Source: Thermoplasmata archaeon
GTDB taxonomy: Archaea; Thermoplasmatota; Thermoplasmata; Lutacidiplasmatales; UBA184
Assembly (NCBI GenBank): GCA_021798415.1
Contig: JAJZGO010000002.1
Location: 159-64,158 of the forward strand
Reading direction: 5' to 3'
Length of the DNA: 64,000 nucleotides
Numbering within the stretch: the stretch's first letter is position 1; each line of letters opens with the position of its first letter. Both the position numbers and the translations under genes were made by a program. Below the pieces are notes generated by a model that saw only the letters and a program-made list of their open reading frames with translations, had not been told where the DNA came from and searched no databases. Below are positions 4,116 through 59,083 of the stretch, in pieces.

Positions 4116-5864
4116 TCAGACGGCCCCCGACCAGGCCCCGGGAAGCCGGCCGGTCGAGCGGATCTCGGCGAGCGACGCGTGGACGACGCCTTCCCGAGCC
4201 TCATGGGCGACCACCTCCTCGGCGGCGCCCACGGGCACCGACCGGGGGCCCTCCTCGGGAACCGGGTGCCCCGAAAAGCGCAGGATGACGAGCGGGGCGA
4301 AGATCATCGGCACGAGCCAGACCCCGTTGAAGACCGTGGCGAGCGGGTTGAACAGGACCATGCCCGCGAGCAGCGCTCCGTCGAGCGCGAGGGCGTAGCG
4401 CGAGATCGAGAGGACTTCGCCGAGGCCGAGCGCCGCCTCGCTCTTCGGCGTCACGGGCACCTGGCCGAGGCGCCGTCGCAATAGGGCGACCATGCTGATC
4501 GCCTCGTACGGCAGCGAGACCGCGCTCACCGCCGCGCTCAGCCAGCGGTGGCGCCAGTAGGTGCCCCACCCGATCCCGCATTGCCGGTAGACGAGCACGG
4601 TCGGGATCGTCGAGACGACTCCGACCACGAGCAGGAACCGGAAGAGCGGGATCGACCAGAACGTCGTGAGGGGATGGGCCGCGAATTGTCCGAGGAAGGC
4701 GAGCGCGGCGGCCGGGGTCGACGCGAACCCGTAGACGGTGAGGAGCATCCCGAGCGGCAGGATGAGGTTCGTGAAGTGTCCCAGCGGGGTCTGCCAGAGG
4801 TGGAACTTCCGCGAGCGGCTCAGGTTCGAGCGGCGCGAAAACTCGATGAACTCCATCGCGCCGCGGGTCCACTTGTTCTGGCGCTTGATGAACCCGCGGA
4901 CGTTCTCGGGCATCGCCTCGTAGGTGTGCAACGGGACAAAGCGGGAGTGCCACCCCCGGTCGGCGAGGGCGACGGCCGTCGCGAAGTCCTCGGAAACGTA
5001 CCCCTCGACGAAGCCTCCGATCGTGTCGACCGCCGCGCGTCGCACCAGGCAGTTGTGACCGTAGCAGAAGACCGTGTCGAGCGCGTTCGCGAGCCGGCTC
5101 TCCCACACGAACTGGCCGACCCGGGACATCGGGGCGAGCGTCTGGACGAACCGGGTGTCGAAGTTCCAGATGTTGACGAGTCCCTGGAAGATCCCGACCC
5201 GGGCCTGGGCGGGGTGTTCGGCGTACTTGAGCGCTTCTCGCACCCAGTCGGAGGGCAGGAAGGAGTCCGAGTCGAGCAGGACGAAGTACTCGTACGCGGC
5301 CCCGTGACGGGCGTACCAATCGTTGATCGCCCCGGCTTTGAAGCCGCGGCGCTCGGGGCGGCGGAGCACCGTGTACCCCCGTTCCCCCGCGATCCGATCG
5401 ACGACCTCCCGGGCCGCGGGCTCGCTCGAGTCGTCGAGCACGTAGACGTCCACGGGGTAGTCCTGGTGGATCGCGCGCAGGCACTCCGGCACGACGTCGT
5501 TCATCGTGGCGTAGAGGACCGCGACCTTCGGTCGGGTCGCGAGCTCCGCGAGCGCGGGGAGGTCCCCGTGGCGGCTCACGAGCGCGACGACCTGACGGGC
5601 GAGCCCGTACGCCGCCCCCACGAACAGCGCGGCGAGGACCCCGAAGAGCGCGATCGACGCGGGGTGGCTCCACCGGATGACGAAGAACGCCATGCTCCCG
5701 ACGAGGGTCGCGTAGATCCCCGCGAACAGCCCGTAGAAGAGACGGCGGACCCCGGGAAGGTTCGGAGGGGCGCCCTCGTAGCGGATCGGCACGGCGTTGC
5801 CGGGCCGGTCGGGCGGCAACCGGCCCGCGAGCGGACCCGAGAGCAATCGCCGCGTTCCTGGCAT
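4116..5864 (-). CDS. Membrane-embedded processive GT2 glycosyltransferase (cellulose synthase / OpgH-like)
   Basis: GT-A core with DDSSEP, DSDS and ED motifs plus a QNKWTRG (QxxRW-like) motif. Multiple TM helices at both ends. The promoter-like conserved 35-bp element sits 27 bp upstream on this strand. Confidence 0.8.
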   Translation of the reverse strand: MPGTRRLLSGPLAGRLPPDRPGNAVPIRYEGAPPNLPGVRRLFYGLFAGIYATLVGSMAFFVIRWSHPASIALFGVLAALFVGAAYGLARQVVALVSRHGDLPALAELATRPKVAVLYATMNDVVPECLRAIHQDYPVDVYVLDDSSEPAAREVVDRIAGERGYTVLRRPERRGFKAGAINDWYARHGAAYEYFVLLDSDSFLPSDWVREALKYAEHPAQARVGIFQGLVNIWNFDTRFVQTLAPMSRVGQFVWESRLANALDTVFCYGHNCLVRRAAVDTIGGFVEGYVSEDFATAVALADRGWHSRFVPLHTYEAMPENVRGFIKRQNKWTRGAMEFIEFSRRSNLSRSRKFHLWQTPLGHFTNLILPLGMLLTVYGFASTPAAALAFLGQFAAHPLTTFWSIPLFRFLLVVGVVSTIPTVLVYRQCGIGWGTYWRHRWLSAAVSAVSLPYEAISMVALLRRRLGQVPVTPKSEAALGLGEVLSISRYALALDGALLAGMVLFNPLATVFNGVWLVPMIFAPLVILRFSGHPVPEEGPRSVPVGAAEEVVAHEAREGVVHASLAEIRSTGRLPGAWSGAV

Positions 5865-5890
5865 CGGGCTCGCATGGGGCCGAGGACTCT

Positions 5891-5930
5891 ACCTCGGTTT
5901 TGGCGCAAGGCCCGTAACGATTGGTGCGGG
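5891..5930 (-). promoter_or_regulatory. Conserved ~35-bp cis-element copy B (reverse orientation, upstream of the GT2 gene)
   Basis: The reverse complement reads GCCCGCACCAATCGTTACGGGCCTTGCGCCAAAACCGAGG. It is about 33/37 identical to copy A at 6831-6870, with its A-rich end about 27 bp from the ATG at 5864. Confidence 0.6.
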
Positions 5931-5980
5931 CCCCGTATTCGAGGGAAAGTCACTTACCTTCTCGGACGCGTGGGGGCCGC

Positions 5981-6271
5981 ATGGACCTTCTTACGGTCTT
6001 CCTCGCGGTCGTCCTCGCCGGATTATCGGCCACCCTCTCCGGGATCGGCGTCGCGGCGGCGTCGCGCTACCGCGACCCGAGGCTCGCGCTCGTCTCGGCC
6101 GGGCTCGCGGTCCTCGCCGTCGTCGGCGGCCTCGACGTCTTGAACCAGGTGTCGCCGCGCTACGGCGAACCGTTCGAGGTCGCGCCGGTGCCGCTCGGGC
6201 TGACGGTGCTAGCGGTCGCGCTCCTCTACGTCGCGCTCGTCCGGGGCGCCGCACGGACCCCATCCCCGTAG
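5981..6271 (+). CDS. Small 3-TM membrane protein (cassette copy A), translationally coupled to the downstream regulator
   Basis: MDLLTVFLAVVLAGLSATLSGIGVAAASRYRDPRLALVSAGLAVLAVVGG...TVLAVALLYVALV has three hydrophobic helices. The stop at 6271 is 1 nt before the regulator ATG at 6273. It is paralogous to 13555..13833. Confidence 0.55.
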   Translation: MDLLTVFLAVVLAGLSATLSGIGVAAASRYRDPRLALVSAGLAVLAVVGGLDVLNQVSPRYGEPFEVAPVPLGLTVLAVALLYVALVRGAARTPSP

Positions 6272-6272
6272 C

Positions 6273-6797
6273 ATGGAGGGACTGGTCGCGCAGCCCACCC
6301 GCCGGAAGATCGTTGACGTCGTCACCGATCACCCGGGGTCGAGCGCGCGTGAAGTGCAGCGGCGGGCCTCGCTCGGCTGGGGCGAGACCGCGTACCACTT
6401 AGACCAGCTCACGCGGGCCGGGGCGCTGCGTCGCGAGCGCGGCGGCCGCCGCGACTACTACTTCCCTTCGACGATGACCTGGGAGGACCGACGGCTGTTC
6501 CAGGTCCTCCGCAGCGGGACCGAGCGACGGCTGTTGCTCGAGCTGAGCGCGCGGCCCGGCCGCACGCTCGCCGAGCTCAAGGAGGCGACGGGGCTCAGCC
6601 TCTCCACGACCTCCTTTCACCTGCGCCACCTGCTCGCGCAGAGTGCGGTCGAGGGGTTCCGGGACGGGCACCTCCGCCGCTACCGTCCGACGCGCCCGGA
6701 ACGGGTCGCCGCCCTCGTGACGCGGTACCGCGAGTCGTTCGAGGACCGGCTCGTCGACCGGTTCGTGGAGGCCTGGAGCGGCCTCCTCGGAGCGTGA
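6273..6797 (+). CDS. Tandem winged-HTH (ArsR-like) transcriptional regulator, cassette copy A
   Basis: Two repeats of an ArsR-type wHTH, REVQRRASLGWGETAYHLDQLTRAGALRRER and LAELKEATGLSLSTTSFHLRHLLAQSAVEG. It is a clear paralog of 13837..14364. Confidence 0.75.
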   Translation: MEGLVAQPTRRKIVDVVTDHPGSSAREVQRRASLGWGETAYHLDQLTRAGALRRERGGRRDYYFPSTMTWEDRRLFQVLRSGTERRLLLELSARPGRTLAELKEATGLSLSTTSFHLRHLLAQSAVEGFRDGHLRRYRPTRPERVAALVTRYRESFEDRLVDRFVEAWSGLLGA

Positions 6798-6830
6798 GTC
6801 GATGAAGGGACGCTCTGGGCTTCGCACCAA

Positions 6831-6870
6831 CGGTTACGGGTCTTGCGCCAAAAGGGAGGTATCTCGACGA
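6831..6870 (+). promoter_or_regulatory. Conserved ~35-bp cis-element copy A (upstream of the surface-protein gene)
   Basis: TTCGCACCAACGGTTACGGGTCTTGCGCCAAAAGGGAGGT. The A-rich end (CCAAAAG) is about 26 bp upstream of ATG 6889, the spacing of an archaeal TATA box on a leaderless mRNA. The upstream 20 bp are conserved in copies B and C. Confidence 0.6.
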
Positions 6871-6888
6871 CGTCCGTGGTCGAACGTG

Positions 6889-7878
6889 ATGCCGGGTACC
6901 GGGAAACCCCTTCTGACGGCGATAGCGCTCGCCGTCGCGCTCACGATTTCGCTCGTCGGGGCCGTCGGACCGGCCATCGGTCACGGCCTCCCCGCGGCTT
7001 CGAACCGCGCCGGAGCGGCCGCGTTCTCCCTGACGAACGGTCTCGTTCGAGCTGACTTTCCGACGGCGGCGCCGTCGTTCACGCTCACGTCGGTCGCGAA
7101 CGCATCGCTCGGGCTCTCGCAGTCCCTCGGCGGGCTCGCCGAGGTGAACGGCACCGGCTACATCGTCGCCTTCGCTCTCTTCGGCGGCCCCGGGGTCGCC
7201 TGGAGCGGGTCGACCGGGGGCTCGTCCGCGTCGACCTGGGTGCATCTCGCGGCGGCCGTGCCGGCCCGTCTCGCGAGCGGCGAGTGGGAGTCGGGGGACG
7301 ACGCGCAGGAAGGCGGGAACTCCTCCCTCGGCTCGGTGAACGTCTCCCTGACGTTCACCCTGAACAGCTCGTCGGGCCCCTCGCCCACGACCGTCGGGTA
7401 CCTGCTCAACGTCACGGGCTGGCCGTGGATTTCCACGCTGGATTCCCTCGGGGTCGAGGTCCTCACGAACACGAGCGGGCCGTCCGGGTACTGGCAGTCG
7501 AACGGGGCCAACTCGATCACCGAACGCTCGAGCACGACCGGCGGCACCGTCGCGACGTACGCCTGGGGGACGTCCGCGACCGCGACGTACGCGAGCGGCC
7601 AGGAGTCGGACAGTTCCGTAGGGGCGTACCACAACGTCTCGACGAACCGGCAGAGCTCGCTCGTCCGCCTCGACTTCGGCACCGTGACCGGGGGGTACCG
7701 CTCGCTCGGCTACGACCCTTGGCTCACCCTCGTGGTCGGCAGCCCCCTCTCCCGTCTCGTGCCCGCCTGGCTCTTGGGCCCGGACGCGCTCGTCACGATC
7801 GGCGCCGGTACGGCGCTCTCGATCGCCCTCGCGGCGGTCGCGCTCCGGCGGCGCCGGGCGCCCGAGAGCGAGCTCTGA
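6889..7878 (+). CDS. Secreted Ser/Thr/Gly-rich surface protein with C-terminal TM anchor (cassette copy A)
   Basis: Signal peptide MPGTGKPLLTAIALAVALTISLVGAVGPA. Many N-x-S/T sequons (NASL, NGTG, NSSL, NVSL, NSSS, NVTG, NTSG). C-terminal TM LVTIGAGTALSIALAAVAL followed by RRRR. The ORF track's earlier ATG at 6802 would include the conserved element, so the start is uncertain. Confidence 0.65.
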   Translation: MPGTGKPLLTAIALAVALTISLVGAVGPAIGHGLPAASNRAGAAAFSLTNGLVRADFPTAAPSFTLTSVANASLGLSQSLGGLAEVNGTGYIVAFALFGGPGVAWSGSTGGSSASTWVHLAAAVPARLASGEWESGDDAQEGGNSSLGSVNVSLTFTLNSSSGPSPTTVGYLLNVTGWPWISTLDSLGVEVLTNTSGPSGYWQSNGANSITERSSTTGGTVATYAWGTSATATYASGQESDSSVGAYHNVSTNRQSSLVRLDFGTVTGGYRSLGYDPWLTLVVGSPLSRLVPAWLLGPDALVTIGAGTALSIALAAVALRRRRAPESEL

Positions 7879-8261
7879 GCCCGAAAGTCACGCCTCGCAC
7901 GCCTCGCCTGCCTCCGTGGGGGCGAGCGTGCGCTTCTCGTTCGTCCCGGCACCGCGAGCCCTTGGGAGACCAGCATCGCGCCCAGGGCCAGACGCCCGAC
8001 AATGGGCCCGAGGTAGGCGAACCAGAAGTAGGATCCCGGCGGCGATCGCGGGCCGCCCACCCGGATCCGGAAGGCGCTTCCGGTCTCCACGCCCGCCCGT
8101 GACGAGGACGGCCCCGAGAACGTAGGGGCCGATCCCGATCAGCATGCGGTTCCTTTCGCATTTTCTGGCAAGATGCGTCCTCCGGGACGGAGGGGACGGC
8201 CGAGGAGGTCGGCATCCTCTGTCGCGACGCGGAGCCGGCGAGGCGAGGGGGACGTCTCCCG

Positions 8262-8711
8262 CTAGCGGGGGCGGTGTTCCCGCCCGCCCCGAACGACGAG
8301 GACCGGGCACGGAGCCTCGTTGACGAGCCCGGAGGAGACGCTTCCGAGGAGGAGGCGGGACCCGCGGGAGAGCCCCCGCGAGCCCACCACGACGAGGTCC
8401 TGGGGGTGCCGGTCCAACCACTCGAGGAGCGCGCGGAGCACGTCGCCCCACAGGAAGACGGTCTCGACCTTGGTGGCGCCCCGGGCGATGGCCTTCTCCC
8501 GTACCTCGTCGAGGATCGTCGCCATGGCGCGCCCGTCGTCGTCGAGCGGGACGAGCCCCTCGAGATACGGGTCGGCGGACGGCCGACGCGCCGGCCGCAC
8601 CACGACGAGGGTGAGCGAGGAGCGGAAGCGGGCCGCGAGCTCGCTCGCCACCTGGCAGGCGCGTCGGGCCTCGCGCGACCCGTCGAAGCCGACAAGGATC
8701 CGGTCGAGCAT
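8262..8711 (-). CDS. Universal stress protein (UspA family)
   Basis: ILVGFDGSREARRA...LVVVGSRGLSRGSRLLLGSVSSGLVNEAPCPVLVV is the canonical Usp fold motif. Confidence 0.85.
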   Translation of the reverse strand: MLDRILVGFDGSREARRACQVASELAARFRSSLTLVVVRPARRPSADPYLEGLVPLDDDGRAMATILDEVREKAIARGATKVETVFLWGDVLRALLEWLDRHPQDLVVVGSRGLSRGSRLLLGSVSSGLVNEAPCPVLVVRGGREHRPR

Positions 8712-8898
8712 CCGTTCTCAACTTCCCAAGTCGACGAACGCTCTTGAGCCGGCGGGCCGCACGTCCCGGACCGGACCGCGAGCGGAGCCCGGGCCCCCAC
8801 CTCGGCCCGGGGTCAGAAGGACCTCCCCCGGGTCCTCGCGGGCCCGGGGTCGGGAAGAAAGGGTTGGTGCCGTAGACCGTCGACCGAGCGAAGCCCCT

Positions 8899-11800
8899 CT
8901 ACGACGTCGGAGGCTTGTCCGGGCCTTCGCTCCAGGTGTTCGAACCCGAGCTCCCGCTCGCGGGCGAGCCGGGGCTGCTCGCGCCGGCCGGAGGCGTCCA
9001 AGCCTCGGGGGGCGACGACGGGGGCGTCGACTTGCCTCCTCCGCGGCGGAGGAAGAGCGCAATCAGCCCGACGACGAGCGCGATCACCGCGACCAGGAGC
9101 GCGAGCGCGAAGTAGTTGTTGAGGTCCGACTTCGTCGCGAGCGGCGCCGGGTTCGACGGCGAGTACATCCCCGAGATGCTGGTCGACTGGCCGGCCACGG
9201 TCACGCTGCCGTTCCCGCCCTTCACGTTGAAGCCGCCGACCGAGCCGAGCGCGTAGGTGAACGTTCCGTTCGGCTCGTAGAAGACGAGCGTCGTTCCCGA
9301 GGTCGACTGGGTCACGCCGTTGACGGTCGCGTTCCAGCTCGTCCCGCCCGGGAGGCCTCCCTCGCTGACGGTGACCGCGTAGGTCAACCGCGAGAAGGTC
9401 ACCCCGACCAGATAGGCGTTCGGTCCCGCAGCGACCGTCCCGGTCGACGGGGACGCCGCATAGCCGGGCACCGGTCCGACCGCGTAGGGGTAGCTGCCCA
9501 TCGGCACCGAGAAGGCGATCGACGCCGCCGAGGAGGTCTCGGCGATGCCGTCGAAGTTCACGGCCCAGCTCGTCCCGGCCACGAGGCCGGTCTCGTTGAA
9601 CGTGACCGTGAACATCTGGTACTCGTCCGGACCGATCGGGTAGTAGTCCCACACGCCGCTCGACACGTAGTACGGGGCGAGGACGCCGTACGAGGTGTAC
9701 GTGTGCCAGTCCGCCCAGTAGTTGCCCACGCCGTTGAGGTCGAACGAGTTGTAGACGTAGCTCCACGCCTGGACGTGCGTGGGGTCGTAGGTGCGGGTGG
9801 CGCCGTTGTCGCCCACGAAGTTGTTGTTGTAGACGAGGTTCCCTTCCCCGTAGGCGATGTAGACCCCGAAGCTCGAGTCGCCGACGAACGAGCTTCCCGT
9901 GACCAGGTTCGACTGGGCGTTCTCGTTCATCTCGACACCGACCACGTCGTGGAACGCTCCGATGTTCGAGAGCGTGGCGTACTCGGTTCCGTTCAGGAGG
10001 ACCCCGAACTCTCCACCGGTTGCGTTGACGTTCGAGAAAGTGACGCTTCCCGTGAGCGCCGTACCCGACCCGCCATCGTAGACGGCGGCGGGGTAGGTGG
10101 TCGCGGTGACGTTCGACACGGTCGTCAGGCTATCGAGGGTCGTCACGACCGCGGCCAGGGCGGGCGCGCCGAAAGTAGTGAACACGAACCCCGGCGCCCA
10201 GGGCCCGGAAAGGGTCGCGTTGCTCGCCGTGACCCCGTTCACGCTCGCGTCGGTGTCCTGGTTGAGCCCGACCGCGAGCGACTGGCCCGAGACCGTGGTC
10301 TGGTCGACGGTGACCCAGGACGAACCGAGCGCGAAGACCCCGACCGAGCCGTCCGAGGCCGTGGTCCCGCGCACGTTCACGTTGTGGGAGCCTTGGATGA
10401 TGGTGCCGACGTCTTGGCCCGAGACCGTGACCGTCGTCACGTTCACGTCCGTAGACGCCAGGATCACCGAGCCCACGCTCGCGGGTCCGGCGGCCGAGAT
10501 CCCCGAAAGGGAGACGAACGAGGAGCCCGAGACGAGCGCCGCCTGGCTTCCCGTGGTCGCGTTGACGCTCGAAACGTTGACCCATTCGGAACCGAGCACC
10601 GCCACGCCGGAACTCGAGTTCTCGGCGGTGAGGCCCGTGAGCGTCCCCGACATGAAGTTCTCGAACACGACGCCCGTGCTGCCGTTCGCCACGACGTTCG
10701 AGACCGAGGCGCTCGAGCCCCCGAGGAAGCCGACCGCGATGGGGCTCCCGTTCGTGGCGGTCACACCGTTAACCGAGCTCGTCGTAACGCCGTACCCGAC
10801 GACCCCCGCGGAGCTGCTCGCGTGGACGGTCGTGACGGTGAGGCCGATCCCTCCGGTCGCGTAGACAGCCTCCGAACCGGTCTCGGACGATACGCCGCTC
10901 AGGGTGGTGGCGTTGGCCCAGAAACCGTCGAACCCGACCGAACCGAAGGAGGCGCTCAGGGTGGTGAACGTCCCCGCCGAGCCGCCCTCGTCGAAGACGG
11001 CCGCGGAGCCGAACTCGGCGGTAAAGTTGGTCCCGACCGCATCGGCGGAGGCGATCACGCTGAACACCGCCGCGCCGAAGCCCGAGACCGAGTTCGTCAC
11101 GGTCGTGTGCGGCGAGGCGGCGGCCCAGACTCCGAACGAGTCGTCCTGGGACACGACGTTCGAGATGCTCGCCCCGGTGTCGTTCCAGAGAGAAATCGCT
11201 CCTCCCTGGACCACCCCGGCGGGGATCAGGACGCCGGCCAGGTTGAGGTTCGAGAAGGCATCGTTCGTCCCGTCGTAGACCACATACTGTTGACCGAGGT
11301 ACGGAATGTTCCCGGTGTACCCGAACGGCGACTGGAACCACTGGGTGATCCCGTGCCAGTTGGGCCCGACGTAGACGTTGTTGATGTCGACCGCCGCCGA
11401 GAACCCGCTCGCCTGCACAAGGCTGAAGGTCGGGAAGCCCCAGTCGTTCAATCGATTGAACGTGAGGTTCACACGCACCTCGAGATTCTTGAAGGTGTAC
11501 GGGGCGCTCGCGCTACCCCCGACCGCGGCGGCCAACGCGGACGCCTGAGCGGCCGACCCCATGTAGAGGGGTGCGTCCAAGACCGCGGGAGCGGCGACCA
11601 TCGTGACCGTGTCGGTGGTCGATGCCGAGAACGGCGTGCCGGCGAACTGATGGTAGCCATCGGCGAACACCGTGAAGTTGTAGCCGAAGAGCACCGGCGG
11701 CAGGTAGGTGCTGACGGTCCCCGATAGGTCCGTCGGCGCCCAGCTGAAATTGTACGTCTGGGCGAGAGCAGGACCGACGAAGACGAAGCCGTAGCTCGGC

Positions 11801-13146
11801 GTCACGTGCGCCGTGAAGTGGATGCTCCCGCTGCCGGTCTGGAGGGTGTTCCAGAGCCCGTAGAGCAGCGAGGGACCGGTCGTGACGTTCTCGGTCGCGC
11901 CGAACCACGTGCTGGCCACCCCGACCGCGGTCTCGCCGGTGTCGCCACCGTAGTCGAATGCGGCCGGGACCCCGGAGTAGGTCGGGCCGACCTGGCGCAT
12001 CAGGTTCAGGCTGCCGTTCACCGAGTTGATGACGGCGTTCGAGCCCGCGCCCGGGCCGGTGAAGACGAGCTCGGAGTCGTAGAACGCGCCGATCGGCGTC
12101 GCCGTGTTGCCGTTCACCAGGAAGTCCGCGGGCAGCGGGGGTGCGATGGAGTTGAAGACCACCGTGTCGTAGACGCCCGCGAAAACGTGGCCCGGTTCCG
12201 TGACCCGGTAGCCGAACGTCACCTGGCTGCGTCCGCTCGGGTTGTTCGAGACGTTGTTGTAGAGGGCGATCGTGACCGGGAACGCGAGGGGCATCGTGGG
12301 CCCGAGGTCGTAGTAGAACTGGCCCGAGACGAACGTCCCGTTGAAGGAGTACAGCGTCCCGGGGTTCAGCGAGGGGCCCGAGAAGTTCCAGACGTTGTCG
12401 ATGAACTGGAGCTGGTGGCCCGAGAAGTCGATGACGTTCTGGGTCCAGAATGCCGCCGTGGTCGAGCCGGGGATCGAGACGTTGGTCGTCACGGTGTTGA
12501 GCTGGACGCCCGACTGGTACGGGCTCGACGCTTGGTTGGCGGGGAGTCCGTTCCAGTAGTACCCACCGGTGTCTTCGTAGAGCTGACCGGCGGTCGCGTT
12601 GTAGCTGTTGAGCGTGAATTGGCCGTCAAAGGAGGGGGTCCAGTACTGGTAGGGGCCGCCCGAACCGATCCCGAGGTCCCCCACGCCCATCGGGGCCGGA
12701 GAGGCCGTGTAGAACGGGCTGATCAGCTGGCCAGGGTTCGAAGCGGGGTGGGCGAGGAGATTGTAGTTCGGAAGGTACGCCGCGTAGGACGGCACTCGGC
12801 CCGTGGAGATCGAGTTCAGGACGCTCGTGACGGTCGAGGTCGCCGCGAGACCCGCGGTCGACTGGGGAGATGCGCCGGGAGAACCGGGCGAATAGTGCCC
12901 CGGGGAAAAGGGCGTCGAGGTCGGCACGGTCGGGGACGAGCCTTTCGCGGCGGCGAAGTTCCCGCCCCATGGGGTCGAGCCTACGGCCGCCGAGTGAACG
13001 CCCGACCCGCTCGCGCTCGTCTGGGACGACCCCGCGATGGACTGGGCGCCGGCAAACGCCCCGGCGGGCAGCACCATCAACGCGGCGATTACGAAAACGA
13101 TCGGCAATGCCCAGACTGCTTTCCGTACGGACGGCAACGCGGCCAT
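8899..13146 (-). CDS. Giant (1415 aa) secreted right-handed beta-helix repeat surface protein with C-terminal TM anchor
   Basis: N-terminal signal peptide WALPIVFVIAALMVLPAGAFA. Long tracts of degenerate roughly 22-residue repeats rich in N/G/S/T/V (NVTTVTVSGQDVGTIIQGSHNVNVRGT...) typical of a parallel beta-helix or pectate-lyase fold. More than 40 N-x-S/T sequons. C-terminal TM ALALLVAVIALVVGLIALFL followed by RRGGGK and a Pro/Ser tail. Confidence 0.8.
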   Translation of the reverse strand: MAALPSVRKAVWALPIVFVIAALMVLPAGAFAGAQSIAGSSQTSASGSGVHSAAVGSTPWGGNFAAAKGSSPTVPTSTPFSPGHYSPGSPGASPQSTAGLAATSTVTSVLNSISTGRVPSYAAYLPNYNLLAHPASNPGQLISPFYTASPAPMGVGDLGIGSGGPYQYWTPSFDGQFTLNSYNATAGQLYEDTGGYYWNGLPANQASSPYQSGVQLNTVTTNVSIPGSTTAAFWTQNVIDFSGHQLQFIDNVWNFSGPSLNPGTLYSFNGTFVSGQFYYDLGPTMPLAFPVTIALYNNVSNNPSGRSQVTFGYRVTEPGHVFAGVYDTVVFNSIAPPLPADFLVNGNTATPIGAFYDSELVFTGPGAGSNAVINSVNGSLNLMRQVGPTYSGVPAAFDYGGDTGETAVGVASTWFGATENVTTGPSLLYGLWNTLQTGSGSIHFTAHVTPSYGFVFVGPALAQTYNFSWAPTDLSGTVSTYLPPVLFGYNFTVFADGYHQFAGTPFSASTTDTVTMVAAPAVLDAPLYMGSAAQASALAAAVGGSASAPYTFKNLEVRVNLTFNRLNDWGFPTFSLVQASGFSAAVDINNVYVGPNWHGITQWFQSPFGYTGNIPYLGQQYVVYDGTNDAFSNLNLAGVLIPAGVVQGGAISLWNDTGASISNVVSQDDSFGVWAAASPHTTVTNSVSGFGAAVFSVIASADAVGTNFTAEFGSAAVFDEGGSAGTFTTLSASFGSVGFDGFWANATTLSGVSSETGSEAVYATGGIGLTVTTVHASSSAGVVGYGVTTSSVNGVTATNGSPIAVGFLGGSSASVSNVVANGSTGVVFENFMSGTLTGLTAENSSSGVAVLGSEWVNVSSVNATTGSQAALVSGSSFVSLSGISAAGPASVGSVILASTDVNVTTVTVSGQDVGTIIQGSHNVNVRGTTASDGSVGVFALGSSWVTVDQTTVSGQSLAVGLNQDTDASVNGVTASNATLSGPWAPGFVFTTFGAPALAAVVTTLDSLTTVSNVTATTYPAAVYDGGSGTALTGSVTFSNVNATGGEFGVLLNGTEYATLSNIGAFHDVVGVEMNENAQSNLVTGSSFVGDSSFGVYIAYGEGNLVYNNNFVGDNGATRTYDPTHVQAWSYVYNSFDLNGVGNYWADWHTYTSYGVLAPYYVSSGVWDYYPIGPDEYQMFTVTFNETGLVAGTSWAVNFDGIAETSSAASIAFSVPMGSYPYAVGPVPGYAASPSTGTVAAGPNAYLVGVTFSRLTYAVTVSEGGLPGGTSWNATVNGVTQSTSGTTLVFYEPNGTFTYALGSVGGFNVKGGNGSVTVAGQSTSISGMYSPSNPAPLATKSDLNNYFALALLVAVIALVVGLIALFLRRGGGKSTPPSSPPEAWTPPAGASSPGSPASGSSGSNTWSEGPDKPPTS

Positions 13147-13554
13147 GTCGGTCTTTCGTGGCTCGTTCGACTATACAAACCTAGGTGCGGCTCAGGAAAC
13201 GCCGGCACGTGGCCGGCCCCCAGGGTGCCCGCGGGTCGGCCGCGCGCCGGGCCGAGATAAGGAATCGAGCCTCGCCGGCCTTAAGCCGGCCTGGGGAGCT
13301 TTCCGACCGGGACTCTGGGGTCGCTGGAGGACCCGCCCGCCTCCCAAGGCGGATGTCGAACGCCCAGGGTCCGGAGGGTACCGACCCCGACCGCCCGCTC
13401 CCGAACCCCGGACGTGGTTCTCGGAAACTACCGAACGCGGATGCGGGCCGAGGTCCGCCGAGTAGGGTCGGTCCCTCACGAGCGTTCCGGGTCGCCCGGC
13501 CGATGTGATCGGCCGCGAACCAACTCCTTAAGCCGCGGGGCCTTCTCGGGGCCC

Positions 13555-13833
13555 GTGAGCCTCCTCGAGCTCTTCGTCGTGGTCCTGGTGACCGGCGTGG
13601 CGCTCCTGAACGCGGGGGTGCCGCTCGCCGCGTGGGCCCGCTCCCGGGACGGCCGCTTCGTCCTCTTGGCGGGAGGGAACCTCGCTCTCGCCGCATTGGG
13701 GGGCCTTTGGCTATGGGGTCAGCTTCCGGGAAGCCCTCCGCCGTATACCGAAGTCCAGCTGCCCGCGTTGTCGATCGTATTGGTCGCGGTTCTCCTCGGC
13801 CTGGCGGCCACCCTCTGGCCCCGTCATGTCTGA
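13555..13833 (+). CDS. Small 3-TM membrane protein (cassette copy B), coupled to the downstream regulator
   Basis: GTG 13555 gives VSLLELFVVVLVTGVALLNAGVPLAAWARSRDGRFVLLAGG...IVLVAVLLGLAATLWPRHV, which aligns along its length with 5981..6271. CTTAAG lies 25 bp upstream. The stop at 13833 is 3 nt before the regulator ATG at 13837. The ORF track starts earlier at 13414 with a non-hydrophobic extension. Confidence 0.5.
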   Translation: MSLLELFVVVLVTGVALLNAGVPLAAWARSRDGRFVLLAGGNLALAALGGLWLWGQLPGSPPPYTEVQLPALSIVLVAVLLGLAATLWPRHV

Positions 13834-13836
13834 GCG

Positions 13837-14364
13837 ATGGAGGAAGACCCCCTCGCTCTCGAAACGCGGCGTCGGCTGTACGAGGCGGTGCGGATGGCCC
13901 CGGGCACCGGGGCCCGCGAGGTCCAGCGCCGTGTCGGTACCGGTTGGGGCGAAACGGTGTACCACCTCGATCGTCTGACGACGTCCGGGCTGCTCCATCG
14001 GGAACGCTCGGGATATCAGGACCATTACTTCGTCGCGACGGTCCCTCTCGCGGACCGAAGCCTTCTCAAGATCACCCGCTCCCGTTCGGCGCGCCGACTT
14101 CTGATCGCCCTCCTCGAAGCCCCGGGGTCGACCGTCCCGGACCTCGAGACGCGCACCGGACTGAGCGAGGGCCGTCTCTCCGTCCATCTCCGGCGACTGG
14201 CGGAGATAAGGGTGGTGCGGACGGGACGCGCCGGCCGGCTGCGCACCTTCGAGCTCACCGACCGTGAGCGAGTCCTCCGGACGCTCGTCGCCTTCCGCCG
14301 AGGGTTCGCCGACGAGTGGATCGAGCGTACCCTCGAGACGTGGTCGGAGCTCTTTCGTCCGTAG
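13837..14364 (+). CDS. Tandem winged-HTH (ArsR-like) transcriptional regulator, cassette copy B
   Basis: AREVQRRVGTGWGETVYHLDRLTTSGLLHRER and VPDLETRTGLSEGRLSVHLRRLAEIRVVR. It is about 40% identical to 6273..6797 along the full length. Confidence 0.75.
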   Translation: MEEDPLALETRRRLYEAVRMAPGTGAREVQRRVGTGWGETVYHLDRLTTSGLLHRERSGYQDHYFVATVPLADRSLLKITRSRSARRLLIALLEAPGSTVPDLETRTGLSEGRLSVHLRRLAEIRVVRTGRAGRLRTFELTDRERVLRTLVAFRRGFADEWIERTLETWSELFRP

Positions 14365-14372
14365 CGCCGTCG

Positions 14373-14415
14373 GGTTCGGACCAACGGCTTACGGTCTTGG
14401 ACCAAAAGCAGGGAC
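14373..14415 (+). promoter_or_regulatory. Conserved ~35-bp cis-element copy C (upstream of the second surface-protein gene)
   Basis: TTCGGACCAACGGCTTACGGTCTTGGACCAAAAGCAGGGAC aligns with copy A with only a few substitutions and indels. It lies about 26 bp upstream of the candidate GTG start at 14441. Confidence 0.55.
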
Positions 14416-14440
14416 AAGGGGAACGCCCTGCTCTCCTCCG

Positions 14441-15433
14441 GTGGCCGACCGACGAACGCCCCACGGAAGTCGCCGCCGAGGCCGGTGGGACTTCCGGGCG
14501 TTCTTCGGGGTCGCCGCGACCGCGCTTGTCCTCGCGGTCACGCTCGTGCCGTTCGGGTCGGGATCCTCGCTGGGGGCGGACTGGTCCTCGACCACGCTCG
14601 CCTGGAGCAACGGCGTGACCCAGTGCATCTTCGTCCCCGGTGCCCCGACGGTCGCCGTGTCGGCGATGAGCCTCGCCGGCTCGGGTCTCTCGACGACCCT
14701 CACGTCTCTCGACGAGGTCACCGCGTCCGGCAACCTCACCGCGGTGGCGGCCCTCTCTTCGGCGACATGGAACTCGACGAACCTCAGCGGCCCGGATCGG
14801 TTCGACATGGCCTACGCCGCGGACGTGCTGATCGTCTCCCCGGTCAATCCCGCGCGGGTCCTCGGCTCGGTCGGTCTGCGAGTGGACTACCTCCTTCCCG
14901 CCTACGCGGATTCCCCTGGCGTCAACCTCCGTAACGTCACTCAGGAGGTCACCATCACGGACTGGACGTGGCAGGGAGCCGGCGACCGGCTCGCCCTTGG
15001 TGTCTCCCTTTGGCCGACGTTCACCGCGCTGGAACGTCTCACCGCCCCTTCGCCAACGAGCTATTCGGTGACGAGCGTCGAGGTCCAAACTGGGGAACCG
15101 CGGGAGTCCGTGGACCTCGGTCGGTCGGCCAACATCAGCCTCCCCGCAAATGGGACCGCGCTGGTTCCCGTTACCCCCGAGGTCCAGATCGCGGGGCAGG
15201 GCACCTACGCCTCGGTCGGCGTGTGGGTCGGCGCCGTCGCCGGAGAGTTCCGGTCGCTCTCGTACGTGTCGGTCATCTCGCTTCCCGTGCCCAAGACCCT
15301 CGCGGGACTTCCGCTCTACGACTACGCGGCCGTGGGCGGAGCGGGATTGGTCGCCGTGGCCGCGCTCGCTCTGACGGCGCGCCGAGTGCGCCGGAGACCT
15401 TCCGACCTCACCTTCGTGGAGGAGCAACTGTGA
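14441..15433 (+). CDS. Secreted Ser/Thr-rich surface protein with C-terminal TM anchor (cassette copy B)
   Basis: A GTG 14441 start gives a basic n-region plus hydrophobic core FRAFFGVAATALVLAVTLVPFG. Sequons NLTA, NSTN, NLSG, NVTQ, NISL, NGTA. C-terminal TM AVGGAGLVAVAALALTA followed by RRVRRR. The ORF track start at 14264 overlaps the regulator and is less likely. Confidence 0.6.
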   Translation: MADRRTPHGSRRRGRWDFRAFFGVAATALVLAVTLVPFGSGSSLGADWSSTTLAWSNGVTQCIFVPGAPTVAVSAMSLAGSGLSTTLTSLDEVTASGNLTAVAALSSATWNSTNLSGPDRFDMAYAADVLIVSPVNPARVLGSVGLRVDYLLPAYADSPGVNLRNVTQEVTITDWTWQGAGDRLALGVSLWPTFTALERLTAPSPTSYSVTSVEVQTGEPRESVDLGRSANISLPANGTALVPVTPEVQIAGQGTYASVGVWVGAVAGEFRSLSYVSVISLPVPKTLAGLPLYDYAAVGGAGLVAVAALALTARRVRRRPSDLTFVEEQL

Positions 15434-16344: not shown

Positions 16345-18336
16345 TTGAGCGAAGGCCCAGGAGTCGTCGACGGGGGAGGCGCGGCCCGGCGGGCGGGCGA
16401 TGGGGGTACGGAGGCTCGCCTCGAGCTCGCGGGGGGAGTCGTAGCCTACAACGAAGAGGCCCACATCCAGCGGGCTCTGGAGTCGCTCCTGGCCCAAGAC
16501 CTTCCGGACGGGGTCCGCTGGGGGCAGATCTGGGTCGTCGCGAGCGGCTGCACGGACCGAACGGTCGAGATCGCCCGGGGAGTGGCCGCCCGCGACCCGA
16601 GGGTCATGGTCGTCGTCGAGCCGGAGCGGACCGGAAAGGCGCGGGCCCTTCGCGAGATCTTCCACCGCGCCCGGGGCCACGCGGTGGTGCTCCTGAACTC
16701 GGACGCCGAGGCGGCGCCGGGAGCCGTAGCCGAACTCCTTCGGCGCGCACGAGGGCACTCCCCTCCCTACGCCGTCATGGCCCGCCCCGTCGTGTCCCCC
16801 GACGCCCCGGGTCGCATGGCCCCGCTACTGCGATTGATGTGGGACCTCCATCACGAGTTCCATCTCCACCTCGCGTCGGAAGGCGGAGGAGCTCACCTCT
16901 CCGACGAGCTTCTCCTCGTCAGCCTCGACCCTCACCCGCCGCTTCCGGAGGGGATCGTCAACGACGGCTCGTACTTCGGGGTCTGGCTGGCGCAGCACGG
17001 AGGGCGACGACTCTACGCGCCCGGGGCCCGCGTGCAGATCGCGATCCCGACGCGACTCACGGACCACCTCCACCAGCGCCGGCGGATCCACGTCGGGAAC
17101 TCCCAGGTCACCGCGGCCCTCGGTCGACGGCCGAGCACCCTCGTGGGACACGCGCGGTCTACGCCGGGCGCGGTGGCGAGGGTGGTCCAGCGATCGGCGC
17201 GCCGTCAGACCCGGGGCTGGCGACGGTTCGTGGCGCTGACGGCCCTCGAGCTCGCGGCGGCTACCCTCTCCTTCTGGGACCGACTGCCCCCGCCGAAGGA
17301 CCACGTCCGCTGGCAGCGGATCCGACCCCCGGCTCCGCGAACCGCCCCTCGCTCGCTCTCGCGCGCTCGTCTCTCGCACAACGCGAGGGGACTGACCGCC
17401 CCGCCTCTCGAGCTGCGGGTAGCGACCTTGGTGGACGTGGCGGCGCGATTCGGGACGGGCATCGCGCTGCCGGACCTCATCTCCCTCCTCCCTCCCGACG
17501 GGCCCTTTACGCCGGGGGACACTCGGGGCTGGCTGGAAGGCCATCCCAGCCTCGCGCGAGTGGACGGTGACCTGGTCCTTGCCCCACGCGCGACCACGGT
17601 CGGGCAGGACGAGCGGCGGACCCGAGGAGAGGCGTCCCTTCGCCACGCGCTCGGGCTGTTCAACGGACCGCTTCGACCGACCCGCAATTGGGTTCGCTGC
17701 GTCTCCGTCACCGGCTCGGTCGCCTACGGCGAGCCGCAGCCGGAGGACGACCTGGACCTGTTCGTGGTCGTTCGAAAGGGGGCGCTTTGGTGGTTCCTGG
17801 GCTACACGTACCTGGCCCTGCGGATCGAGCGGTGGCGTCGGGGCCGCGGGTTCGGACCGGTCGCGTGCTTCAATTACACGATCGAGGACTCGACGGCCGC
17901 CGAGGCACTGACCGAACGCCGTGACTTCCTGACGGCCCGCGACGCGCTCTCGGCGAAGCCTATCCTGGGAGCGTCCTACTATCAGGGACTCCTCGCCCGC
18001 TGCCCGTGGATGGCCACCGAGATCCCGCGATTGTATGCGGTCCGCGCTCGACCTTCCGACGACCCCGATTCCCTCCCCGCGCCGATCGCGCTCCGGGTCG
18101 CGGACGCGGTCGTCTACCCTCTCCTCGCGACGTACCTTCAATTGGCCGGTCTCTGGAGGAACGCGCGGAATCGTTCCAACGAGACCGGGGCCTTCCGGAC
18201 GGTGACGCGATTGGGACGCATCGCCTTCGTTTCCCGTCGATTCGAGGCTCTCCGTTCCCAGTACGTGGAAGGGCGCGAGCCGTCGGAGGCATCGACGGGG
18301 GTAACGTATCCGTCGGCGCTCCCGTCCGCCCGATGA
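16345..18336 (+). CDS. GT2 glycosyltransferase fused to a C-terminal minimal (Pol-beta-type) nucleotidyltransferase domain
   Basis: N-terminal GT-A domain GGVVAYNEEAHIQRALESLLAQ...VLLNSDAE. C-terminal segment VTGSVAYGEPQPEDDLDLFVVV matches the G[SG]x9-13DxD nucleotidyltransferase signature. No in-frame stop separates the two domains. Confidence 0.7.
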   Translation: MSEGPGVVDGGGAARRAGDGGTEARLELAGGVVAYNEEAHIQRALESLLAQDLPDGVRWGQIWVVASGCTDRTVEIARGVAARDPRVMVVVEPERTGKARALREIFHRARGHAVVLLNSDAEAAPGAVAELLRRARGHSPPYAVMARPVVSPDAPGRMAPLLRLMWDLHHEFHLHLASEGGGAHLSDELLLVSLDPHPPLPEGIVNDGSYFGVWLAQHGGRRLYAPGARVQIAIPTRLTDHLHQRRRIHVGNSQVTAALGRRPSTLVGHARSTPGAVARVVQRSARRQTRGWRRFVALTALELAAATLSFWDRLPPPKDHVRWQRIRPPAPRTAPRSLSRARLSHNARGLTAPPLELRVATLVDVAARFGTGIALPDLISLLPPDGPFTPGDTRGWLEGHPSLARVDGDLVLAPRATTVGQDERRTRGEASLRHALGLFNGPLRPTRNWVRCVSVTGSVAYGEPQPEDDLDLFVVVRKGALWWFLGYTYLALRIERWRRGRGFGPVACFNYTIEDSTAAEALTERRDFLTARDALSAKPILGASYYQGLLARCPWMATEIPRLYAVRARPSDDPDSLPAPIALRVADAVVYPLLATYLQLAGLWRNARNRSNETGAFRTVTRLGRIAFVSRRFEALRSQYVEGREPSEASTGVTYPSALPSAR

Positions 18337-50528: not shown

Positions 50529-50601
50529 GAAGCCACTGGAGGGACTTGAACCCCCGACCTGCTGATTACGAATCAGCCGCTCTGCCGGCTGAGCTACAGT
50601 G
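50529..50601 (-). tRNA. tRNA-Thr (anticodon CGT)
   Basis: Hand-folded 73-nt cloverleaf: acceptor GCCACTG/CAGTGGC, D arm GCTC-AGCCGGCA-GAGC, anticodon arm GCTGA-TTCGTAA-TCAGC, variable loop AGGTC, T arm GGGGG-TTCAAGT-CCCTC, discriminator T. No encoded CCA. Confidence 0.8.
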
Positions 50602-50642
50602 GCAACCGTCAGGGTCCTTGCCCGAGTTTTCATAAGCTTGGC

Positions 50643-53483: not shown

Positions 53484-53738
53484 GAAAGGGGGGAAGGGCG
53501 CTTCGGCAAAAGGACCACGCGATACCGTCCGGGGCCTTCCGAGAAGCCTGGGATTCTCCTTTCGACGAGGCGCCCGGTGGGCGGTCGGGGCCGCGCGCGC
53601 CACCTTGACCGGACGGCTCCGACGTCCCCTCTCCGAGGACTTTCGACGCACATCCACCGTTCACTCTTTGACGGTACACGGACCCGGGGGTCGCGTCGTA
53701 AGTGCTACTAAGGTTCCGAGCAATGGGTACGAAGGTCG

Positions 53739-59012: not shown

Positions 59013-59083
59013 CCCGCGCTCACGACGCACGGCCACGGTTCACTTTCTGACGGTAGAAGGACCTGGGGGTCGCGTCGTACGTG

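Follow-up and report, generated by a model that had tools for sequence, protein, structure and literature searches.

A widespread two-repeat control element and its probable tandem winged-helix regulator in uncultured Thermoplasmata archaea

Introduction

Several archaeal regulators work from upstream activator sites (UAS) beside BRE/TATA, including Ptr2 in Methanocaldococcus, GvpE at the UAS of the haloarchaeal gvp genes, and EarA and ArnR at archaellum promoters. Like the element described here, these are short conserved sites directly upstream of BRE/TATA in a fixed phase, and two sites per promoter are possible; the haloarchaeal gvp genes also share with it a compact divergent promoter with one common upstream region. 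The present system differs in its candidate regulator, a PF24266 protein with tandem ArsR-type winged-helix (wHTH) domains in a single chain, in its strict 21-bp direct repeats, and in its hosts, uncultured high-GC Thermoplasmata.

SdpR/SdpI and the ArsR/SmtB proteins resemble the regulators studied here in their ArsR-type wHTH fold, and in SdpR/SdpI the membrane-protein gene shares an operon with the regulator, as in the cassettes described below. Classical ArsR/SmtB proteins, however, are single-wHTH homodimers on inverted repeats that overlap the promoter, whereas here two wHTH domains are fused, the repeat is direct and lies upstream of the BRE, and there are no conserved metal-ligand residues. 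Two winged-helix domains in one polypeptide are also found in the iteron-binding Rep initiators (RepE, RepA, pi), which place one monomer per unit, as is proposed here, on direct repeats of ~20–22 bp, phased by two helical turns. At the replication origins on which those initiators act, several iterons accompany an AT-rich unwinding region, whereas here two units stand at a chromosomal promoter with the start codon 41–46 nt downstream.

In the LytTR systems HdrRM and BrsRM, one transcript encodes both the regulator and a small membrane protein, two direct repeats of 9 bp separated by a 12-bp spacer (a 21-bp period) stand immediately before the promoter, and autoregulation is combined with control of nearby secreted or surface functions (PMC6193735). 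The ~21-bp-period direct repeats just upstream of a promoter and the co-encoded small membrane protein recur here as a design analogy only; the LytTR systems have a LytTR domain instead of wHTH, a bacterial sigma-70 promoter, the order regulator then membrane protein, and no sequence relationship to the present genes. The regulators described here matched wHTH families alone, with no LytTR domain among the matches.

We know of no described function for PF24266 tandem-wHTH proteins, and gene regulation in uncultured, high-GC Thermoplasmata is, to our knowledge, hardly explored. HVO_0163 is reportedly mentioned in an acetylome study; no description of the motif or of the regulator was found in the literature.

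Results

A control element of ~50 bp occurs in three genuine copies in the window, i.e. the whole 64-kb stretch of Thermoplasmata archaeon DNA that was analysed, and is widespread in uncultured Thermoplasmata archaea. The full element spans 6814-6864 on the + strand (copy 1), 5887-5937 on the - strand (copy 2) and 14368-14418 on the + strand (copy 3). All three copies named in the preliminary description are present, yet the 39-mer quoted for copy 1 sits at 6821-6859, ~10 nt left of the 6831-6870 given there. The size of ~35 bp also has to be revised upwards: the element consists of two 21-bp direct repeats, and the operator begins ~8 bp further upstream.

For specificity, a PWM was built from 50 instances in other genomes, excluding the window and its near-twin L022. 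Scanning both strands of the window, copies 1, 2 and 3 scored 53.0, 50.3 and 27.8 bits, compared with 4.5 bits for the best non-site position and 16.0 bits for the best of 30 shuffles scored with the same matrix, which bears out the earlier claim that the copies are not a product of chance. Exact TTGCRCCAA is found in the window only at 5900-5908 (-) and 6843-6851 (+), with 0.09 occurrences expected. The site scans covered the 64-kb window and neighbourhoods of ~16–20 kb. A 13-mer at 54824-54836, earlier offered as a possible fourth site, is present but matches the poorly conserved spacer only; with both GCRCCAA boxes missing and a low PWM score outside the top positions, it is best read as a coincidence.

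Each site contains two direct repeats of 21 bp, and each repeat combines a TTCGGG-type box A with a TTGCRCCAA box B one helical turn away. In ~750 kb searched with spacings of 19–23 nt allowed, the box-to-box spacing was 21 nt in 54 of 54 instances. These instances give the consensus CGGG.cTtGCACCAAccg.TtCGGGgCTTGCgCCAAAA.CGagGtatccCC, with an information content of 1–2.6 bits in the boxes and near zero in the flanks, and conservation reaches about -73 as two phased 21-bp repeats. As boxes A and B appear ~10 bp apart within head-to-tail repeats of 21 bp, the four boxes would lie on one helix face over ~40 bp.

The repeats of copy 1 form site D1 (6814..6853, +), with box-B G's at 6824 and 6845 and CCAAAA at 6848-6853. 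Those of copy 2 form site U (5898..5937, -), with box-B G's at 5927 and 5906 and CCAAAA at 5898-5903; site U points to a GT2 glycosyltransferase gene and makes an inverted repeat with D1. Site D2 (14368..14407, +), in copy 3, has GGACCAA in both repeats and box-B G's at 14378 and 14399, and its 27.8 bits were obtained with the paralog-1 matrix. The family as a whole has one to three units per site: a distant subfamily carries a single CTTGCRCCAAT box at equal distance from a TTCTAA TATA-like element, and one locus has three 21-bp repeats. A replication origin with iterons was considered and rejected, given two units per site (1–3 in the family), no AT-rich tract, and a position locked to start codons.

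Copies 1 and 3 lie just past the stop codon of a regulator gene, where read-through transcription is conceivable, and the element might in that case be a structured RNA, whether a small RNA or a UTR (3' for the regulator transcript, 5' for the target). Against this, copy 2 occupies a divergent intergenic region, and the conservation follows direct repeats, not pairing. Rfam at the gathering threshold gave no match at the element, the only match in the window being tRNA-Thr (50531-50603). Folding of the three copies gave z-scores of +1.9, -1.6 and -0.6, with a structure that differs per copy and none unusually stable. An RNA function is, on this evidence, highly improbable.

The G of the second GCRCCAA box served as reference point for distances to the start codon. 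In the window, the start codons lie at +42 (ATG 5864, -), +44 (ATG 6889) and +42 (GTG 14441), with an in-frame GTG at +41 for the 6889 gene. Among the 69 sites to which an ORF was assigned, 47 have the start codon at +41 to +46, always on the strand to which the site points, and independent gene calls agree with those starts. The fixed distance to the start codon noted earlier therefore extends well beyond the window, and with the constant spacing (54/54) and start position (47/69) the element has the fixed place and orientation relative to the gene that characterize an operator or UAS.

Columns +12 to +21 are conserved in the 54 instances, with a TATA-like box at +14 to +19. While the preliminary description had the A-rich CCAAAAG in the place of the TATA box, the CCAAAA run, which lies roughly 41 to 36 nt before the start codon, is in the BRE position, and the TATA-like sequence is GTATCC, centred near -27. 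The proximal box B would run into this A-rich, BRE-like tract; the BRE label is tentative, since 3 nt separate the A-run from the TATA-like box. Judged by column conservation and geometry, the putative TATA-like box of the GT2 promoter is GTAGAG (5887..5892, -; +14 to +19 from the second box and ~27 nt before ATG 5864), and that of the 329-aa gene is GTATCT (6859..6864, +; centred ~27 nt before ATG 6889). A TATA-like box ~27 nt before the start codon suggests that the mRNA would be leaderless or nearly so, and the geometry fits leaderless promoters. The TATA-like element is itself weak and GC-rich.

The operon of the small membrane (TM) protein and the regulator has a promoter of its own, unrelated to the element, with AAAG-N5-TAC ~27 nt before the ATG. 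Its putative BRE/TATA (GGGAAAG-T-CACTTACC; 5943..5958, +) adjoins the distal repeat of site U, which would make a compact divergent promoter. In 21 sequences with a U site, the candidate start of the TM gene (in-frame and nearest to the site) is mostly 37–48 nt past the site's distal end, and an AAAG..N5..TTAC/ATAC motif lies ~27 nt before it. Upstream of 181 ORFs with a well-defined start, a modest A/T enrichment was seen at -36 to -26. Promoter profiles are noisy overall in these genomes, and this weak A/T rise supports the geometry without settling it.

The A-run and TATA-like box at the 3' end have core-promoter geometry, and the element might in principle be an extended basal promoter element for the general machinery, e.g. 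a specialised TFB paralog, with the regulator adjacent through synteny only. TFB and TBP bind BRE and TATA elements; conservation to about -73, however, goes well beyond BRE/TATA, other promoters of the same loci, e.g. that of the TM–regulator operon, are without repeats, and the box sequence switches with the adjacent regulator paralog inside one genome, as described below. We consider such a basal element improbable.

The first regulator cassette comprises a gene for a small membrane protein (5981..6271, +; 96 aa by translation and as called in the source contigs), whose stop lies 1 nt before the regulator start, and the gene for tandem winged-helix regulator paralog 1 (6273..6797, +; 174 aa). 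The second comprises a small membrane protein of 92 aa by the source-contig call (13555..13833, +) and regulator paralog 2 (13837..14364, +; 175 aa), which is 44% identical to paralog 1. The small gene directly precedes the regulator in both cassettes; a U-type site upstream of cassette 2 was not found with the PWM in the window.

PF24266 (HTH_HVO_0163_N) matches paralogs 1 and 2 with 67.1 and 51.5 bits against a Pfam gathering cut-off of 31, and paralog 1 also matches HTH_20. The ArsR/SmtB model NF033788, with a cut-off of 55, gives 59.5 bits for paralog 1 and 51.7 bits, just below, for paralog 2, and PDB profile matches to ArsR/SmtB proteins go down to 7e-9. The AF2 model of paralog 1 (pLDDT 92) has two ArsR-type wHTH domains in one chain plus C-terminal helices; a fold search with the regulator returned generic tandem-WH and ArsR matches and no close two-domain homolog. 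In a conserved-residue comparison, no Cys was found among the invariant or near-invariant regulator residues. A metalloregulator of the ArsR/SmtB type was rejected in view of the two wHTH domains in one chain, the direct-repeat operator and the lack of a conserved Cys. The paralog 2 ortholog group contains 241 proteins at E <= 1e-20, and the 120 listed are all 175–176 aa long.

Copies 1 and 2 stand in opposite orientation directly at the two ends of the first two-gene unit and share 87% identity over 39 nt; a repeat search ranked their arms (5890-5928/6823-6861, 39 nt, 87% complementary) first among the inverted repeats of the window. Such an arrangement would suit a small mobile cassette that carries the membrane-protein and regulator genes between terminal inverted repeats. 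However, there is no transposase within the cassette and no direct duplication of the bases flanking both copies, the flanking genes and start distances are kept among lineages whose regulators are ~50–75% identical, and the downstream copy is found alone in many loci. The two paralogous cassettes of this genome are moreover 44% identical, and therefore not recent copies. We give a mobile origin almost no credence. MITE or transposon TIRs were likewise rejected, as there is no target-site duplication and no transposase, three copies only are found in 64 kb, and synteny is conserved.

At least one site is present in 43 of 50 genomic loci that were found via the tandem winged-helix regulator protein, and seven of the 50 are without the double site. 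The site typically lies 20–100 nt past the regulator stop and/or divergently upstream of the regulator operon, and dozens of Thermoplasmata genomes keep the element in the equivalent place. In the opposite direction, a DNA-only metagenome scan gave seven credible matches among the matches listed, six of them with a regulator gene adjacent. The matches listed in that scan were mostly chance ones from unrelated low-GC organisms.

The box sequence follows the regulator paralog. Paralog-1 regulators (recognition helices WGETAYH and SLSTTSFHLR) adjoin GCRCCAA/TTCGGG sites, and paralog-2 regulators (WGETVYH and SAGRLSVHLRR) adjoin G[GA]ACCAA/ATTCCG sites. This pairing holds in 10 of 10 cases with none crossed, paralog 2 being represented by the window, L022 and six independent metagenomic lineages; six independent paralog-2 loci all keep the G[GA]ACCAA variant. 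Shared ancestry partly confounds both the co-occurrence and the covariation by clade, and the strongest argument is that both paralog/variant pairs are present together in one genome, that of the window. The element thus co-occurs with a specific transcription factor, as an operator or UAS does (43/50 loci; 6/7 among the matches listed; 10/10 pairings). Conserved placement, reciprocal co-occurrence and a variant that tracks the paralog all favour the earlier prediction of an operator for the adjacent tandem-wHTH paralogs, and the neighbouring regulator most probably docks at the element, which lies just upstream of the promoters of surface and polysaccharide-synthesis genes.

The gene that site U points to encodes a processive GT2 glycosyltransferase of 582 aa (4116..5864, -; start at +42), with Pfam matches to Glyco_trans_2_3 (2e-21) and Cellulose_synt and sub-threshold NCBIfam matches to the MdoH, PgaC and CelA models. 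Target 1, behind D1, is a 329-aa type-I membrane glycoprotein (6889..7878, +) with a signal/TM segment, a beta-sandwich ectodomain bearing many N-x-S/T sequons, a C-terminal TM helix and a basic tail. It has no Pfam or NCBIfam match; its AF2 model (pLDDT 72) gave weak supersandwich matches (TM about 0.3–0.4) in a fold search. Target 2, behind D2, is a 330-aa type-I membrane glycoprotein (14441..15433, +), a distant paralog of target 1 that begins with the GTG at +42, the same start as in the source contigs. The gene map needs correcting in two places: the gene after copy 1 is the one for the 329-aa protein, and a thermopsin/NosD protein of 1415 aa is encoded at 8899-13146 (-).

Across genomes, the main target is the ~330-aa membrane-anchored glycoprotein, the target 1 family contributing 36 of the 73 ORFs that were paired with PWM sites as targets, with the GT2 synthase, PKD or PQQ-propeller proteins as further targets by clade. 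GT2 orthologs stand behind U sites in 7 sequences. The proposed regulon of GT2 and surface glycoproteins is supported, but its GT2 link via the divergent site is limited to the window's clade, with PKD or PQQ-propeller proteins in that position in other clades. In paralog-2 cassettes, a GT2 gene usually follows.

Discussion

We put a probability of about 0.78 on each copy being a composite of operator and core promoter and the cognate site of the adjacent tandem-wHTH regulator, with activation favoured. We infer that the regulator would bind the element that lies beside its own gene, most likely with one chain per repeat and one wHTH per box, i.e. two chains in tandem, and would activate by recruiting or stabilising TFB/TBP. 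Activation is favoured because the site always adjoins BRE/TATA and never covers BRE/TATA or the start codon. As site U borders directly on the promoter from which the regulator operon would be transcribed, feedback would be allowed. The small membrane protein, co-translated with the regulator, may be its signal-dependent partner, and the 96-aa protein is possibly a partner or an inhibitor.

The choice of activation is drawn solely from the geometry, and it departs from the classical role of the ArsR/SmtB and SdpR relatives, which is repression. The regulator may instead be a repressor or autorepressor that blocks TFB at the BRE-proximal box and is released through sequestration by the membrane protein, as happens with SdpR/SdpI in Bacillus subtilis. 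This would agree with the ArsR/SmtB type of the regulator, with a small membrane protein encoded in its operon, with a proximal box that merges into the A-rich BRE-like tract, and with a site U that adjoins the regulator operon's own promoter. The similarity to the SdpR model NF033789 is nevertheless weak, at 28.8 bits against a cut-off of 100. Archaeal repressors more usually overlap the TATA box or start codon, whereas here the boxes stop at the A-run in the 54 instances, leaving both free, and the phase-locked two-repeat layout upstream of the BRE is like that of archaeal and bacterial activator sites. We regard repression as the less likely mode.

Beyond activation of the neighbouring promoter, one may speculate, as a less likely reading, that the cassette of membrane protein, regulator and glycoprotein with its iteron-like 2 x 21-bp operator is an unrecognised, Thermoplasmata-wide envelope-sensing switch. 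The regulator would be kept inactive by the membrane protein until a surface signal sets it free. The freed regulator would then switch on its own operon, along with a polysaccharide synthase and an accessory glycoprotein of BcsB-like type, and each cell would have two such paralogous switches side by side, insulated from each other (GCRCCAA and G[GA]ACCAA).

A local transcription factor with its site is an ordinary object, and the present one is a new but unsurprising example whose mechanism is not new. It provides a precise, testable candidate operator for the PF24266 family, and a small predicted regulon that joins envelope glycoproteins to processive glycosyltransferases. The two regulator/operator variants are a natural, insulated pair, useful for studying how wHTH specificity diverges. 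The element also suggests what core promoters probably look like in these organisms: transcripts would be leaderless, and the TATA-like box near -27 would be weak and GC-rich. Finally, automatic annotation puts copy 1 within a coding sequence, and the element therefore yields corrected starts for several genes.

Two direct repeats of 21 bp at a fixed distance from start codons

The preliminary description listed three copies of a promoter-like element of ~35 bp, and all three are present on reading the sequence: copy 1 on the + strand, copy 2 on the - strand at ~5890-5930 and copy 3 on the + strand at 14376-14413. Copy 1 had been placed at 6831-6870, but the quoted 39-mer occupies 6821-6859, 10 nt further left. 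In a repeat search, the arms 5890-5928 / 6823-6861 (39 nt, 87% complementary) rank first among all inverted repeats in the window. A mobile cassette bounded by terminal inverted repeats was rejected, as there is no target-site duplication and no transposase, and both synteny and start distances are conserved. A structured RNA was likewise rejected, with no match in Rfam, fold z-scores of +1.9, -1.6 and -0.6, and structures inconsistent between the copies.

Using a loose regular expression, we obtained 56 matches in ~750 kb, of which 54 were retained as instances and then aligned. The two GCRCCAA boxes start 21 nt apart in 54/54 instances, with 19-23 nt permitted by the search. The consensus, CGGG.cTtGCACCAAccg.TtCGGGgCTTGCgCCAAAA.CGagGtatccCC, reveals two direct repeats of 21 bp, in each of which a TTCGGG-type box A and a TTGCRCCAA box B lie ~10 bp apart. 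Conservation is itself periodic (box columns 1-2.6 bits, flanking columns ~0 bits) and reaches further upstream than first described.

To assess specificity, a PWM was built from 50 instances, leaving out the window and its near-twin L022. With this matrix from other genomes, the window copies score 53.0, 50.3 and 27.8 bits, against 4.5 bits for the next-best window position and 16 bits for the best of 30 shuffles. The exact TTGCRCCAA occurs in the window only at the two strong sites. The 13-mer at 54824-54836, an exact match to the copy 1 spacer inside a coding region, had been described as either a further binding site or a coincidence; it matches only the variable spacer, with no GCRCCAA boxes nearby, and we judge it to be a coincidence. 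The PWM, the exact-box counts and this spacer-only match together argue for a rare, promoter-bound element rather than a dispersed repeat at random positions, the window scan giving three sites only, all of them at promoters.

On the 3' side of the second box B, an invariant AAAA is followed by a TATA-like G-T-A-T-C-C at +14 to +19. Among 73 PWM sites overall, 69 have an assigned ORF, and the start codon falls at +41 to +46 in 47 of these and at +48 to +67 in the others; the window offsets are +42, +44 and +42. The TATA-like box lies ~27 nt before the start codon, which is the classical archaeal TATA-to-start spacing and would imply leaderless or near-leaderless mRNAs for the target genes. The A-run coincides with the place expected upstream of TATA for the A-rich BRE, a putative assignment based on reviewed archaeal promoter elements (PMC7289017). 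Because GTATCC fits the ~27-nt distance and the A-run falls at the BRE place, the initial reading of CCAAAAG as the TATA box probably placed it one element too far 5'. The promoter of the operon encoding the small membrane protein (TM) and the regulator lacks the repeats, yet carries AAAG-N5-(T/A)TAC ~27 nt before the ATG in most of 21 sequences. In a profile of 181 ORFs whose start is well defined, A/T rises modestly at -36 to -26.

Two paralogous cassettes in the window

The gene map is based on GC3 profiles and Pfam. The GT2 synthase gene (4116-5864, -) is followed on the + strand by genes for a 96-aa membrane protein (5981-6271), the tandem-wHTH regulator paralog 1 (6273-6797) and a 329-aa secreted/anchored protein (6889-7878). 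After a Usp gene (8262-8711, -) and a gene for a 1415-aa thermopsin/NosD protein (8899-13146, -), the + strand encodes a second small membrane protein (13555-13833), regulator paralog 2 with 44% identity to paralog 1 (13837-14364) and an anchored protein of 330 aa, a distant relative of the 329-aa protein (14441-15433). A further GT2 gene lies at 16345-18336. The gene map and the motif copies thus define two paralogous cassettes, each of membrane protein, regulator, motif and anchored glycoprotein, while the remaining copy (copy 2) faces the opposite way, toward the GT2 gene. The giant thermopsin gene with NosD repeats sits between both cassettes; its upstream region (13147-13400) does not contain the motif. 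Similar giant thermopsin genes also adjoin the cassette in L181, the sequence of a relative.

Automatic calls on the source contigs seem to misplace three starts (6802-6888, 13837-13893 and 5847-5864). Called from ATG 6802, the 329-aa target becomes 358 aa long and would enclose copy 1 in its CDS; regulator 2 is called late (156 aa versus 175 aa in almost every ortholog listed), as is the GT2, by six codons (576 aa versus 582 aa). From the conserved spacing between motif and start, 6889, 13837 and 5864 are favored as starts.

The site accompanies the regulator and varies with it

A regulator of identical sequence is present in Thermoplasmata MAG contigs. At E <= 1e-5 it has 180 homologs, and among the 120 listed every source name given is Thermoplasmata archaeon or an unnamed metagenome. 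In most of the 50 regulator loci from a one-genome-per-species scan, the motif is visible in the DNA directly 3' of the regulator gene. One or more sites scoring above 22 bits occur in 43/50 loci; 34 loci have a site on the same strand within ~120 nt past the regulator stop, and ~19 have one on the opposite strand, immediately 5' of the small membrane-protein gene. At these divergent sites, the nearest candidate membrane-protein start lies 37-48 nt from the distal end in most sequences. Such a gap suggests a compact divergent promoter, in which one site could also control the operon of the regulator itself. A DNA-only scan of metagenome contigs gave, among the matches listed, mostly chance hits from unrelated organisms; seven were high-scoring and high-GC, and a regulator gene adjoins six of them, the seventh lying near a contig end.

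Copy 3 carries GGACCAA in both repeats. The ortholog group of paralog 2 comprises 241 proteins, and the 120 listed are 67-79% identical, one near-identical copy excepted. As its recognition helix reads WGETVYH, this group was absent from the first genome scan, and six independent loci were added to the comparison. All six have the same cassette and two repeats 21 nt apart that both contain TTGGACCAA or TTGAACCAA, with ATTCCG instead of TTCGGG as box A and start codons at +41 to +45. In all sequence compared, G[GA]ACCAA double sites adjoin paralog-2 regulators in 10/10 cases and paralog 1 in none; the proximal box is GCRCC in all paralog-1 downstream sites. Both regulator/variant pairs coexist in the window. 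This match between variant and paralog is the strongest argument for the adjacent protein as the putative reader of the site. Together with the 43/50 loci and six of seven DNA-only matches, it upholds the original proposal of a candidate operator for the adjacent tandem-wHTH regulator. A purely basal promoter element was rejected, since conservation extends to ~-73 and varies with the regulator paralog.

Within paralog 1, box variants (TTCTGG, CGCACC and others) track recognition-helix variants by clade, a pattern confounded by shared ancestry. In a distant subfamily the double site is absent, and one CTTGCRCCAAT box stands at the same distance from TTCTAA. In five relatives (L042, L044, L045, L046 and L049) this single box (CTTGCRCCAATCGAyTnTTCTAAC) precedes the membrane-protein gene by a long leader and the regulator by ~350-400 nt. 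Another relative, L039, has three tandem 21-bp repeats at 7515-7586. Hybrid sites, with a distal GAACCAA and a proximal GCRCC, occur in L015 (~12432, -), L016 (~15744, -), L018 (~15875, -), L040 (~8545, +) and L048 (~8590, +); in the first three the regulator is 7 kb away and the site precedes a gene for an ~820-aa PKD-related protein. The hybrids may reflect co-regulation by both paralogs.

Predicted regulator structure and proposed binding model

The confidently predicted regulator structure (pLDDT 92) has wHTH domains at 8-65 and 70-139, then C-terminal helices. Both recognition helices contain an ArsR-like x-H-L motif. By sequence the regulator matches ArsR/SmtB proteins best; a fold search yields generic tandem winged-helix proteins and single ArsR domains. 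There is no Cys among the conserved residues, which makes metal sensing unlikely. As two chains hold four wHTH domains and the site four boxes ~10.5 bp apart, the simplest model would place one chain on each 21-bp repeat, two chains head to tail. Rep monomers sit on iterons, and one chain per direct repeat would resemble that arrangement. Replication iterons themselves were rejected: there are only two units and no AT-rich tract, and the position is tied to start codons.

Targets point to the cell envelope

The 73 site-assigned ORFs, to which some sites contribute a few alternative or short ORFs, were clustered by BLAST and given Pfam assignments. The largest class (36 ORFs) is a family of ~325-395-aa anchored glycoproteins containing both window proteins, followed by GT2 synthases, PKD-type proteins and PQQ-propeller proteins (7 each), small secreted proteins and P-loop proteins (3 each), and one pair plus eight singletons. 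From these classes, the predicted regulon is about the cell envelope. The 329-aa protein is predicted to have a beta-supersandwich ectodomain and a C-terminal TM helix, with weak likeness to carbohydrate-handling domains in a fold search. Paralog-2 cassettes are usually followed by GT2 and methyltransferase genes (six loci). The suggested coupling of a polysaccharide synthase to surface proteins is supported, but judging from the loci compared, the GT2 link via the divergent site is specific to the window's clade.

The ~330-aa targets (6889-7878 and 14441-15433; ~10600-14000 in the relatives L180-L185) combine a predicted beta-supersandwich ectodomain and numerous N-glycosylation sequons with one C-terminal TM helix, and adjoin processive GT2 genes. 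Speculatively, such an arrangement recalls BcsB, the cellulose synthase partner.

Mode of action

Across the 54 aligned instances, conservation of the boxes ends with the A-run and does not extend to the TATA-like box or the start codon, to both of which the site keeps a fixed phase. By analogy with archaeal activator sites, these features favor activation of transcription by the regulator, at a probability of roughly 55-60%. The main alternative, a repressor or autorepressor freed by its membrane partner in the manner of SdpR/SdpI, appears considerably less probable. The design parallels LytTR regulatory systems, which combine a regulator, a small membrane inhibitor, positive feedback and direct repeats of 21-bp period immediately 5' of the promoter (PMC6193735), although the regulator here is a wHTH protein whose DNA-binding domain is unrelated to LytTR. 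Our literature search found no description of the motif or the regulator, whose family is known only by a Pfam domain name. The pair, a local transcription factor and its probable operator, belongs to a familiar type and is not surprising in principle; it has an unusually clean architecture and is useful for annotation and experiments.

A second conserved element of ~65 nt occurs at 53644-53708 and 59023-59087 (+), with 86% identity and flanks that cannot be aligned. It has no Rfam match and weak fold z-scores, the best being -2.3 for the minus strand of the copy at 53644-53708; its ends are complementary (CGACGC...GCGTCG).
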